Position numbers and translations under genes: made by a program. A DNA stretch of 64,000 nt, taken from NCBI GenBank assembly GCA_027494035.1, contig JAOSJQ010000001.1, forward strand, positions 3,182,131 to 3,246,130. Reading direction: 5' to 3'. The stretch's first letter is position 1; the number at the start of each line of letters is the position of its first letter. The notes under the pieces were generated by a model, which had not been told where the DNA came from, ran no database searches, and worked only from the letters and a program-made list of their open reading frames with translations. Below are positions 16,441-18,958 of this stretch, in pieces. This DNA is from Anaerolineales bacterium. Lineage in GTDB: Bacteria > Chloroflexota > Anaerolineae > Anaerolineales > UBA4823.

Positions 16441-17082
16441 TCATTTTCCTTGCCGCTGCTGCCGATATAGCTTGGGGTCGATCACTGAAATCATACGAGC
16501 TGTGTCAAGCTTCCTGCCCAGAAACCTCTGAATTTCTTCGACTTGAGGCGCAGGATCTTTCAATAGAAGATTGTAGTCGATATCCAAGGTTTGGATGTTC
16601 GGCTGTTCACGCAGCCATTCCGTGATTTTGGCGAGATGCTTTCCAAACAAACCACCCATTTCCTCATCGCTAATATCCTTTGGCGTCTCGCCGCGGTTTA
16701 CCAGCATCTTTTGCTGAGAAGCTAAAATTTCATCCATGTCGCGCCGCATGAAGATGATTTTATAGGAGTGGTTTTGCGGAAGAAAAGACAGCAACGCCGA
16801 GATAACCTTGACAACCTTGCCGTGTGCGGCGTCCAGCCAGCCCAGATCGCCGTCCTTCATTTTCTTCACCCGTTCAAATTCGTAATATCCCTTTGGGTTG
16901 TCTGCGTCTGCCTGGCGTTCGAAATCGGTCAATGGTTCGATCCCCGCTGCTTCGAGCATCATCATCATCAAGGAGGTGCCTGAGCGCGGCAGCCCAGAAA
17001 CAATAAAAACGGGCTGCTCAGCCCGTTCTCTTTGAAAAAAATTTAAAGAATTTCCCTGCCAACGAAAATCGCTCCCGATCAA
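16441..17082 (-). CDS. Sulfotransferase family protein (start uncertain)
   Basis: 5'-PSB loop IVSGLPRSGTSLMM, DNPKGYYEFE, KIIFMRRD..EILASQ. The listed ATG at 17160 lies inside the upstream peptide gene; likelier starts are the in-frame TTG at 17082 or the RBS-bearing TTG at 17062 (needs one T removed from a T7 run). Confidence 0.85.
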   Translation of the reverse strand: MIGSDFRWQGNSLNFFQRERAEQPVFIVSGLPRSGTSLMMMMLEAAGIEPLTDFERQADADNPKGYYEFERVKKMKDGDLGWLDAAHGKVVKVISALLSFLPQNHSYKIIFMRRDMDEILASQQKMLVNRGETPKDISDEEMGGLFGKHLAKITEWLREQPNIQTLDIDYNLLLKDPAPQVEEIQRFLGRKLDTARMISVIDPKLYRQQRQGK

Positions 17083-17240
17083 ATGGTTTGACAGGAGGCG
17101 CAGGTGACCTGGGTCATCTGGTTTCCCGAAACCTGCCCCTGGCAGTCTCGACAACTCCATCGACCCGCACGCAGGTCAGTTTTGACCTTGATCTGTTGAA
17201 CCGCCCCAGTTATTACCGCAGCAAATTCCTTCGTCAGCAT
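17079..17240 (-). CDS. Unannotated 53-aa Cys-rich peptide B: MLTKEFAAVITGAVQQIKVKTDLRAGRWSCRDCQGQVSGNQMTQVTCASCQTI
   Basis: Translated by hand; GGAGA RBS 8 nt before ATG; shares leader motif and CxxC-x13-CxxC core with the upstream peptide. Confidence 0.8.
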   Translation of the reverse strand: MLTKEFAAVITGAVQQIKVKTDLRAGRWSCRDCQGQVSGNQMTQVTCASCQTI

Positions 17241-17263
17241 AGGTTAATTCTCCAATCCATGTC

Positions 17264-17527
17264 CTAGAGATAACAGACTTCGCAACGCGCGTTCGAAAGC
17301 AGACCAGGCGCCAGTTCAGAACCGGTGCAAGATTGGCAATCCAGCATCTGAACGCCGGGCGGAGGCGCGGGTGAAGGCGTAGGAATTGGGGGCAGCGGTG
17401 TATTCGAATCAAGAATCGGCACCCAGGCGTCTCCAACCAGTTGATAACACACCGTACGCCCTGCTCGTACATCGGAACGAACGCGTATCGCCGCAGATAT
17501 TTGCTCATTATTCAACAATTGGTTCAT
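17264..17527 (-). CDS. 87-aa Cys-rich peptide A (IRVRSDVRAG motif, Pro-rich linker, CxxC-x14-CxxC)
   Basis: GGAGG RBS before ATG 17527; MNQLLNNEQISAAIRVRSDVRAGRTVC...DCQSCTGSELAPGLLSNARCEVCYL. Confidence 0.8.
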   Translation of the reverse strand: MNQLLNNEQISAAIRVRSDVRAGRTVCYQLVGDAWVPILDSNTPLPPIPTPSPAPPPGVQMLDCQSCTGSELAPGLLSNARCEVCYL

Positions 17528-17547
17528 GCAAAACCTCCACCGCGGAT

Positions 17548-17576
17548 ATTCTATACACAATTCTACGAATCGGCAA
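17548..17576 (-). promoter_or_regulatory. sigma70-type promoter of the peptide/sulfotransferase operon
   Basis: Minus strand TTGCCG (17576-17571), 17-bp spacer, TAGAAT (17553-17548). Confidence 0.6.
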
Positions 17577-17728: not shown

Positions 17729-18958
17729 ATGAAATTTCAAAAGACCATCGCCATCCTATCTTTCATCATTGCATTATTAATATCCAGCGTTGCTTGTGGT
17801 TTTACTTTCGAAACGGCTCCCGTGTTCACCCCCGAGGTTGAGGTGGTTCTGCCCACTCAGGAAGTCGAGGAAACTGTGGCGGTCCAGCTTATAGAATTAA
17901 CCACACCGCTTCAGCAACCTACCGCAGCCGCTGAGCCGATCATCACTACCAGTGAGGAAGCAATCCTTGTAGAAATGTATCGGCGGATCAATCCTGCTGT
18001 TGTTAGCGTGCTGACATACGACTTACAAAAGAACATCGTCGTATCCAGCGGACAGGGCTCCGGTTTCCTCTACGACACAAACGGGCACATCGTTACCAAT
18101 TCTCACGTCGTCCACGGCGCTGACCAGGTCGAAGTCCTTTTTTCAAATGGATTATCGGTAAAAGGTAAAGTCATCGGTCAGGACCTCAACAGCGATCTCG
18201 CGGTTATTAAGGTGGAGAACGTTCCCGCGGATGCTCAACCAATTCCGCTAGGACACATCGAAGATGTCGCCGTCGGGCAGACTGTGGTCGCGTTGGGGAA
18301 TCCTTTTGGTCTGGACGGCACACTGACCAAAGGGATCGTCAGTGCGCTGGGTCGCACCATTCCCGCACTGACAACCTTCTCGATTCCACAGGCAATCCAA
18401 ACCGATGCGCCCATTAACCCCGGTAATTCCGGTGGCCCGCTATTGAATCTCAAAGGCGAGGTCATCGGAGTGAATGCTCAGATCGAAACGCGCGGAAACA
18501 GCCGCTCAAACAGCGGAGTTGGTTTTGCGATACCGGTCAGTATCATCTCGCGCGTGGTGCCAGAACTGATTACCAACGGGAAATTCGAGTGGAGTTGGCT
18601 GGGGGTGGTCGGAGGCAACCTGAACTCCACGACCCGTGAGGCGATGGGTCTTTCGGTGGAACGCGGCGCCTATATTTCAGAGGTGGTCAACGGCGGGCCG
18701 GCTCAGTTAGCTGGTCTGCACGGCTCTACTCGCGAGATAAACTATGATAGCCGGATCATCGAAATTGGCGGAGATGTCATTGTCGGGATCAATGGAGTGG
18801 AAGTAAGCACTTTTGAAGATATTTTGATTTATATTGCCCTCAACACCATACCCGGTCAGCAAGTTGATCTTACAATCGTACGGGATGGAAAGACCCAGAA
18901 CGTCCCGTTGACACTACAGCCTCGACCGCCTGGGTCGAGTGAGTTTGTTCATCCCTGA
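17729..18958 (+). CDS. HtrA/DegP-family serine protease with a PDZ domain, probable lipoprotein
   Basis: Lipobox SVAC, GSGF, TNSHVV, DLAVIK, IQTDAPINPGNSGGPL, C-terminal PDZ. Confidence 0.92.
   Translation: MKFQKTIAILSFIIALLISSVACGFTFETAPVFTPEVEVVLPTQEVEETVAVQLIELTTPLQQPTAAAEPIITTSEEAILVEMYRRINPAVVSVLTYDLQKNIVVSSGQGSGFLYDTNGHIVTNSHVVHGADQVEVLFSNGLSVKGKVIGQDLNSDLAVIKVENVPADAQPIPLGHIEDVAVGQTVVALGNPFGLDGTLTKGIVSALGRTIPALTTFSIPQAIQTDAPINPGNSGGPLLNLKGEVIGVNAQIETRGNSRSNSGVGFAIPVSIISRVVPELITNGKFEWSWLGVVGGNLNSTTREAMGLSVERGAYISEVVNGGPAQLAGLHGSTREINYDSRIIEIGGDVIVGINGVEVSTFEDILIYIALNTIPGQQVDLTIVRDGKTQNVPLTLQPRPPGSSEFVHP

Follow-up and report, generated by a model that had tools for sequence, protein, structure and literature searches.

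A short basic leader motif on paired Cys-rich peptides of an Anaerolineales bacterium and its association with a C39 peptidase-containing exporter

ATP-binding cassette (ABC) transporters that carry a peptidase domain (PCATs) export bacteriocins, pheromones, and ribosomally synthesized and posttranslationally modified peptides (RiPPs) behind double-glycine leaders of 15 to 30 residues, and genome miners look for GG motifs. Here, we describe two small neighboring genes for Cys-rich peptides, A and B, in a 64,000-nucleotide stretch of the genome of an Anaerolineales bacterium (contig JAOSJQ010000001.1, positions 3,182,131 to 3,246,130), hereafter the window. Both peptides carry a basic motif of 10 residues ending in Ala-Gly, and we propose that they are probably PCAT-exported, leader-cleaved peptides with a noncanonical short leader. 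In the cited portions of two earlier reports, canonical leaders end in Gly-Gly, Gly-Ala, or Gly-Ser (PMC6363468, PMC10986499). The first of these places hydrophobic residues at positions −4, −7, and −12 on a short helix that lies in a groove of the peptidase, with a basic residue at −4 or −7 blocking processing by LahT150 (PMC6363468). The second concerns the PCAT HetC, given there as having an unknown substrate, from the filamentous bacterium Nostoc PCC 7120, and considers that atypical signals may hide PCAT substrates (PMC10986499).

Two further described systems bear on the locus. Precursors of the NHLP/Nif11 type are associated, in the part of the survey cited here, with a three-gene cassette encoding a C39 ABC transporter, a further ABC transporter that lacks the peptidase, and an HlyD protein (PMC3140520). 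The raxX-raxSTAB cluster of Xanthomonas, as far as the cited text describes it, produces a sulfated RiPP with its own sulfotransferase and a PCAT-type exporter (PMC6637879).

The leader motif and the C39 exporter

The motif reads h-[KR]-h-[KR]-[TS]-x-h-[KR]-[AS]-G (h, hydrophobic) and stands at or near the N terminus of small open reading frames (ORFs). The first clue came from genus g55, in which four neighboring small ORFs share the motif and differ in their tails, a set that is kept between genomes. In a pattern search of the kind proposed in the first-pass annotation of the window, a strict protein pattern matched the 4.05-Mb genome, translated in six frames, at 13 sites compared with none for the mirrored pattern, and 12 of the 13 lay no more than 40 residues from the start codon of a small ORF. 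About 11 of these ORFs, at five loci, are credible, and one of them lies in the PCAT cassette described below. Their tails are unrelated and include LysM domains, Cys-rich hairpins, helical peptides, and Pro- and Cys-containing repeats. Outside the window, the motif ORFs include a cluster of four genes at G000:C1:1643434-1644605 (L157 9435-10605) and clusters of two genes each at G000:C1:2525700-2526150 and G000:C1:2895250-2895780. Two genes of these outlying clusters encode LysM-domain proteins (Pfam E value of 4.1e-9 for the one tested), and no hydrophobic Sec-type signal was found in any of the genome's leader-bearing ORFs, these two included. NCBIfam returned nothing at an E value of ≤0.01 for four other leader peptides.

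Over all DNA fetched, 56 unique motif ORFs were collected, of which 35 begin at the motif itself and 12 have tails without Cys. The search pattern itself set which residue classes the motif could show, so that counts within the motif describe a pattern-defined family and information comes only from the flanks. On either side, conservation is at background, and it ends at the Gly. Position −1 is Gly in all 56, and position −2 is Ala in 41, Ser in 15, and never Gly, the pattern having allowed only Ala or Ser. Leu, Ile, Val, or Met occupies position −4, and 51 of the ORFs have Arg or Lys at −7; the 35 ORFs that begin with the motif have too few residues before the Gly for a position −12. The same leader precedes tails of 7 to 140 residues, as in a leader/core architecture. 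The pattern of a conserved leader and a variable core, first read from A and B alone, emerges only in a comparison of all motif ORFs of the genome, and the findings support the view that the motif behaves as a modular leader or recognition element before unrelated tails. No description of this leader was found in the literature searched, including that on Chloroflexota (subscription journals and supplementary files lay outside the search).

The only C39 domain found in the genome belongs to a 948-aa PCAT with Pfam Peptidase_C39, ABC_membrane, and ABC_tran domains, encoded at about 3,481,000 to 3,484,000 of G000:C1, some 284 kb from the window. The first-pass annotation had found no exporter adjacent to the peptides; it could not have seen the PCAT, which lies at that distance, outside the window. 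The cassette (G000:C1:3.481-3.490 Mb) comprises the PCAT gene, a gene for a 188-aa membrane protein on the divergent side in the position of HlyD, a gene for a second ABC protein of 778 aa, a 61-aa leader peptide encoded directly after it, and two pentapeptide-repeat proteins of 401 and 619 aa (L160 8968-12029). The latter follow the cassette peptide in 13 of 16 loci and seem to be part of the conserved cassette. In 11 PCAT orthologues, the C39 columns Gln20, Cys26, His106, and Asp122 are invariant.

Leader and exporter track with each other across genomes. Among 401 genomes of the order, the A family was found in 8, the cassette peptide in 16, and the PCAT N-terminal region in 16; cassette peptide and PCAT region occur together in 15, among them all 8 genomes with the A family. 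When the leader was sought as a degenerate DNA pattern placed at an ATG, there were 87 matches distributed over all 16 PCAT-carrying genomes (2 to 14 each), compared with 8, near chance, in 20 PCAT-less genomes of the same taxonomic family that were the first 20 without a match rather than a random draw; 15 of these 20 have none. The backwards pattern gave six matches over all 36 genomes. The association also holds at the level of loci: of the 16 cassette-peptide loci, which total about 269 kb, 12 include the PCAT and 14 have the second ABC gene next to the peptide, and they contain 15 further leader ORFs, three of them between cassette genes. A search with the whole PCAT retrieved 2 close relatives and 48 generic ABC loci, and the latter served as negative controls; 629 kb of these unrelated ABC loci held no match to the leader pattern, and 588 kb of sulfotransferase loci held two, both of them the A/B pair of locus L066. 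The clearest single case is one genome (G155) in which 14 tandem ORFs of 17 residues lie directly upstream of the PCAT gene on the same strand (L245, G155:C397, 2585-3874, minus strand). Every one of them is preceded by an AGGAG-like site and joins the 10-residue leader to a 7-residue hydrophobic core, making the array a candidate set of tiny exported peptides.

The motif is modular, adjoins the PCAT, and matches it in phyletic pattern, and the catalytic residues of the C39 domain are intact; by adjacency and phyletic match, the leader is genetically associated with a catalytically complete C39 exporter. In the mechanism that we propose, the C39 cysteine-peptidase domain of the PCAT, the only one in the genome, would recognize the short basic leader in the cytoplasm and cut it after the invariant Gly while the PCAT exports the tail. 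The RAG triplet of A and B had been suggested as a recognition or cleavage site. A modular leader that tracks with a C39 exporter agrees with recognition, and cleavage after the Gly is a step that we infer.

Like double-glycine leaders and other PCAT substrates, the present system has a short N-terminal leader with two small end residues before unrelated cargo, a hydrophobic residue at −4 and a small one at −1, one transporter for what would be several cargos, and an ABC exporter with an N-terminal C39 domain whose Gln, Cys, His, and Asp columns are intact. Unlike them, its leader is only about 10 residues long and basic and shows a beta-strand-like alternation rather than an acidic amphipathic helix, and its cargos include whole LysM domains. 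The cassette resembles that of NHLP/Nif11 precursors, as far as the cited survey describes it, in having two ABC proteins, one with C39, and a small membrane protein in the HlyD position. Its best NCBIfam matches are NHLP export subunits, far below their equivalog cutoffs (178 compared with 853 bits); that of the PCAT is the NHLP-type bacteriocin export peptidase/permease/ATPase model, below its cutoff. As in those systems, many precursors with one type of leader are scattered over the genome, presumably in parallel with the prochlorosins. In contrast, the present leader has no likeness to NHLP or Nif11 domains, two pentapeptide-repeat proteins are present, and the cassette contains no modifying enzyme. 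With HetC, going by the cited account, the system shares a PCAT in a filamentous, multicellular-type lineage, but here candidate substrates can be named from the genome and there is no known link to cell differentiation; the likeness to HepA/HetC-type models is a general ABC likeness only.

Several points weigh against export of A and B by the PCAT. The leader ends in [AS]-G and not in G-[GAS], and beyond −4 it departs from the hydrophobic positions given in the cited accounts of canonical leaders. With −2 taken by Ala or Ser, −7 by Lys or Arg, and −12 usually absent, we have not filed it as a canonical double-glycine leader and rate it instead as a putative new variant of the double-glycine/PCAT kind. 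The genes for A and B lie 284 kb from the PCAT, and only 1 of the approximately 11 leader ORFs in this genome adjoins it. In genus g55, the cassette peptide is found without cassette genes in the 13 to 19 kb fetched (L236 and L237), and the small membrane protein that occupies the place of HlyD matched no family. The choice of PCAT-less genomes was not random, and the co-occurrence counts overstate the support because related genomes are not independent. Structure prediction for peptide A is of low confidence (mean predicted local distance difference test [pLDDT] score of 50). A predicted complex of C39 residues 1 to 160 with peptide B had a median score of 0.35 compared with 0.01 for the best control, a result that counts for the proposal but is graded only as weak support; 58 of 80 solved complexes and 2 of 110 mismatched pairs attained this mark, with scores of ≤0.60 in only 7 of those 80. 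The runs agreed in at least 78% of contacts with a partner pLDDT of at least 49, and memory may contribute to the score, since like complexes (a PCAT or C39 domain with a leader) have been solved. Finally, all of the support for leader cleavage and export is genomic.

A leader of about 10 residues seems to serve the same purpose for about a dozen different cargos per genome, among which are 7-residue cores, encoded in a tandem array of 14 genes, as well as LysM domains and Cys-rich hairpins. Uncultured filamentous Anaerolineales make up the host lineage and, going by sequencing-run labels, are common in activated sludge. If true, PCAT export behind this leader would widen the rules for finding PCAT substrates, offer a very short export tag for engineering, and draw attention to secreted peptides, so far unstudied, with a possible part in competition or signaling in wastewater communities.

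Peptides A and B

Peptide A, peptide B, and a sulfotransferase are encoded one after another, head to tail, on the minus strand of the window. The gene for A (17264 to 17527; 87 aa plus stop), preceded at 7 nucleotides by GGAGG, encodes a 13-residue variable N terminus, the leader motif (residues 14 to 23; 17459 to 17488, ending in AG), a Cys/aromatic beta-hairpin segment, a Pro-rich linker, and a CxxC...CxxC tail. The gene for B (17079 to 17240; 53 aa plus stop) encodes a 16-residue variable N terminus, the leader motif (residues 17 to 26; 17163 to 17192, likewise ending in AG), and a 27-residue tail. Counted between the inner cysteines, the tails are CxxC-x14-CxxC in A and CxxC-x13-CxxC in B, and A also has an extra Cys and a Pro-rich insert. 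A match to a sigma-70-like promoter (17548 to 17576, minus strand; −35 TTGCCG, 17-nucleotide spacer, −10 TAGAAT) stands upstream of A. The promoter-like site, both peptides, the sulfotransferase, the motif, and the CxxC pairs were all found where the first-pass annotation had placed them, with the qualification that the promoter match (9/12) is not significant alone, because 1.5 kb held three such sites compared with 1.5 ± 1.3 in shuffles.

Between A and B, BLASTP aligned only the 10-residue motif and its edge, with 8 of 14 residues identical. The two genes are adjacent and in the same order in all five same-genus genomes and in five genomes of two further genera (four of g38 and one of g40). 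In one g38 genome (G274), a 446-aa multipass membrane ORF lies between the A and B genes (L061 9465-10805), and the pair is therefore not always contiguous. The ratio of nonsynonymous to synonymous substitution rates was 0.09 to 0.13 for both peptides in two unsaturated comparisons, and by this measure A and B are real genes under purifying selection. Alignments of the A family (26 sequences) and the B family (12 sequences) show a variable segment before the motif and a conserved Cys-rich C terminus; within each family, the expected pattern of a conserved leader and a variable core does not hold. Among 5.8 billion proteins, the A family forms 50 clusters, none of them named, and peptide A had 24 matches at an E value of ≤1e-3 in 1.84 billion representatives, about 18 of which are small proteins of this kind. 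The ESM Atlas contained unnamed clusters only. Pfam and NCBIfam had no family for A and only subthreshold zinc-site matches for B, with nothing relevant in NCBIfam for either at an E value of ≤10, and a sequence search of the PDB gave no match to A at an E value of ≤10 and only chance-level cytochrome matches to B.

Contigs from four RNA libraries of three studies, labeled as activated sludge and bioreactor, cover A and B at ≥99% identity. Of the two points on which the earlier proposal for the peptides depended, conservation was borne out, and expression is suggested by these contigs. RNA libraries may hold DNA carryover, contig depth cannot rank genes, and uncovered parts are not evidence of silence. 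The contigs span 17076 to 17530, 17103 to 17500, 17183 to 17534, and 17261 to 17529; three of them end at 17529 to 17534, just downstream of the −10 hexamer, a weak hint that the 5′ end of a transcript lies there.

AlphaFold2 predicted a beta-hairpin for residues 28 to 52 of peptide B (pLDDT of approximately 72 to 74) in which the two CxxC pairs face each other, with residues 1 to 20 below 50; such a disordered N terminus before a hairpin tail counts in favor of the proposed leader. The model of peptide A was not usable for a fold search because of its mean pLDDT. If the PCAT cuts and exports both peptides as proposed, mature A would have 64 residues and five cysteines, and mature B would be a 27-residue beta-hairpin with facing CxxC pairs, which outside the cell could be held by two disulfides or a metal ion. 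Since they are always encoded as a pair, A and B may act together, possibly as a bacteriocin-like pair or a signaling pair.

The sulfotransferase downstream of the pair

With its start placed at a TTG overlapping the TGA stop of B, the sole start codon in the window at a position matching that of the orthologues, the sulfotransferase gene (16441 to 17082, minus strand) would encode about 213 aa. Both Pfam matches are above their cutoffs: Sulfotransfer_3 at an E value of 4.7e-13 (50.3 bits; cutoff, 27) and Sulfotransfer_1 at 1.9e-11 (44.3 bits; cutoff, 22). The orthologues have 201 to 207 aa and start about 20 residues before the N-terminal loop, which we take to be the nucleotide-binding loop; its residues are invariant in eight orthologues, as expected of a 3′-phosphoadenosine-5′-phosphosulfate (PAPS)-dependent enzyme. 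No NCBIfam model covers the family. The gene is likely cotranscribed with A and B in this family of genomes. A terminator-like hairpin (17005 to 17030, minus strand; 11 pairs and a T run) lies 50 to 75 nucleotides past the stop of B, within the first 25 codons at the 5′ end of the sulfotransferase ORF. It folds at the same place in two same-genus loci (L043 and L044) and could attenuate read-through from the peptide genes into the enzyme gene.

The first-pass annotation had suggested that the sulfotransferase may act on Tyr, Ser, or Thr of the peptide cores. In an updated form of this explanation, which adds to PCAT export rather than replacing it, the enzyme would O-sulfate A, B, or both in the cytoplasm, ahead of their cleavage and export by the PCAT. 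The order A-B-sulfotransferase, on one strand and with gaps of 0 to 40 nucleotides, is found in the window and in seven further loci (L041-L045, L059, and L061), and two genera of the family share this arrangement. There are also precedents, at least in the cited parts of two reports: raxX-raxSTAB combines a sulfotransferase, a leader peptide, and a PCAT-type exporter (PMC6637879), and sulfonated lanthipeptides exist (PMC11143521). The distribution of the enzyme, however, does not follow that of the peptides. A profile of the eight orthologues, searched against contigs of one genome per species, found at least 596 loci; among the best 80 of the first 600 matches (L065-L144; 49 to 61% identity, enzymes of about 200 residues), which do not include the five same-genus loci, A and B occurred in one, that of a g38 genome (L066), by profile search of six-frame ORFs, tblastn, and pattern scan, 8 of the 80 having less than 600 bases upstream. 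The hosts are mostly Chloroflexota but extend to Nitrospirota, Delta- and Gammaproteobacteria, and a planctomycete, and the neighbors vary, with metal regulators, P-type ATPases, Feo, and ABC genes each in a minority of loci and a sulfatase homologue nearby in 6 of the 80.

Conversely, the peptides occur without an adjacent enzyme. In G143, A and B lie between sulfatase and HtrA genes with no sulfotransferase there, its copy being 126 kb away. In genus g55, which has A-like peptides, the sulfotransferase is on another contig in G047, and it was not found in G102 (92% complete) or G138 (72% complete), both of which have A-like peptides. The window's genome has a single copy, hence no specialized paralogue, and none of its other nine leader ORFs adjoins a sulfotransferase. 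Neither the 26 A nor the 12 B sequences have an invariant Ser, Thr, or Tyr, and B of the window has no Tyr at all. A PDB profile search with the sulfotransferase returned 32 cytosolic SULT-type enzymes and no chain named as a tyrosylprotein sulfotransferase (RaxST itself was not compared), and the terminator-like hairpin separates B from the body of the enzyme gene. The PCAT cassette contains no modifying enzyme; beyond MNIO/DUF692, other RiPP enzyme families were not searched. The co-occurrence of a modifying enzyme with precursors that marks a RiPP locus is thus missing here.

Within the cited description of raxX-raxSTAB, the likeness consists of a small leader peptide beside a PAPS-type sulfotransferase and a C39-type exporter in the genome. 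The present exporter, in contrast, is encoded outside the cluster, members of the sulfotransferase family are widely found where the peptides are not, a conserved Tyr or acidic-Tyr site is missing, and the enzyme is unlinked or not found in some peptide genomes. RaxX is the nearest precedent for the earlier idea, and, measured against what is cited of it, three of its features fail here: the acceptor is not conserved, the enzyme is not specific in its distribution, and the exporter is not clustered with the peptides. The sulfotransferase belongs to a widespread stand-alone family and is most likely not a tailoring enzyme of A and B; sulfation is possible and unsupported, and we judge it unlikely. 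A fuller version, in which the short basic leader is a new PCAT export signal for a small secretome, the sulfotransferase O-sulfates A and B on Ser or Thr before export, and the convergent sulfatase removes the group, is quite unlikely. If true, Chloroflexota would have a two-peptide signal or bacteriocin that is sulfated, the first such case apart from RaxX and the lanthipeptides. An adjacent sulfotransferase is insufficient to call a sulfated RiPP.

Neighboring proteases, Cys-rich tails, and minor observations

In same-genus genomes, the pair sits in a syntenic block that reads phosphodiesterase, membrane protein, and sulfatase; sulfotransferase, B, and A; HtrA; dehydrogenase; and GalT. The HtrA-type serine protease with a PDZ domain (17729 to 18958, plus strand) is divergent from A in all 10 related genomes examined, which belong to the same taxonomic family, and adjoins the pair in every pair-holding genome of that family. 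An NfeD protease gene and an M48 peptidase gene precede the four-gene leader cluster at 1.643 Mb of G000:C1. Together with the noncanonical fit of the leader to C39 domains, these neighbors raise the alternative that the motif is a signal for HtrA, another neighboring protease, or another export route and that its link to the PCAT is indirect. The proteases differ between loci, however, and none co-occurs with all leader loci. HtrA in particular is absent from the g55 cluster, and no evidence of a functional link between it and the peptides was found beyond adjacency; as a dedicated peptidase it was rejected, its adjacency being kept within the taxonomic family and missing in g55. Adjacency and a matching phyletic pattern are combined only in the PCAT cassette, and a signal for other machinery is, in our estimate, improbable.

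Alternatively, A and B could be small intracellular zinc-ribbon proteins in which the CxxC pairs bind zinc and the motif is the first beta-strand, with neither cleavage nor export. The short spacing of the CxxC pairs would suit such a fold, as would the predicted beta-hairpins and the Cys-rich tails being the best-conserved part, and B has subthreshold matches to the HypA zinc site (E value of 8.2e-4; 19.8 bits, cutoff 28.9) and the DnaJ Cys-rich region. This does not account for the 12 of 56 motif ORFs with Cys-free tails, LysM domains and 7-residue cores among them; the motif also stands before these tails and is therefore not part of a zinc fold. In addition, the motif tracks with the PCAT, the motif region of the B model is of low confidence and outside the hairpin, and the PDB holds no sequence relative of A and only the chance-level cytochrome matches of B. 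We thus consider zinc ribbons very unlikely and retain PCAT export behind a short leader as the probable explanation.

A methanobactin-like precursor with an MNIO enzyme, considered because of a resemblance of the leader, was rejected as unsupported, as the sole MNIO/DUF692 (PF05114) match of the genome (G000:C1:98460-98774, within L156 [G000:C1:96960-100274] at 1067-1950) is 3.1 Mb away and divided between two ORFs, with no gene for a small peptide seen next to it. The two ORFs, of 147 and 131 aa, overlap and may reflect a frameshifted gene or an assembly error. A likeness of the motif to the N termini of small ribosomal proteins was dropped for want of any such Pfam match.

The middle of peptide A has counterparts elsewhere. 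The Pro/Cys repeats of other leader ORFs share with it an aromatic Gly-Val-Trp-Tyr-Pro theme. Its series of Cys-aromatic, turn, and Trp/Tyr-Pro also resembles a repeat of about 35 residues that is present in up to 29 copies in giant proteins (P0071, P0064, and P0068) and that, from its sequence, may be a common beta-hairpin unit.

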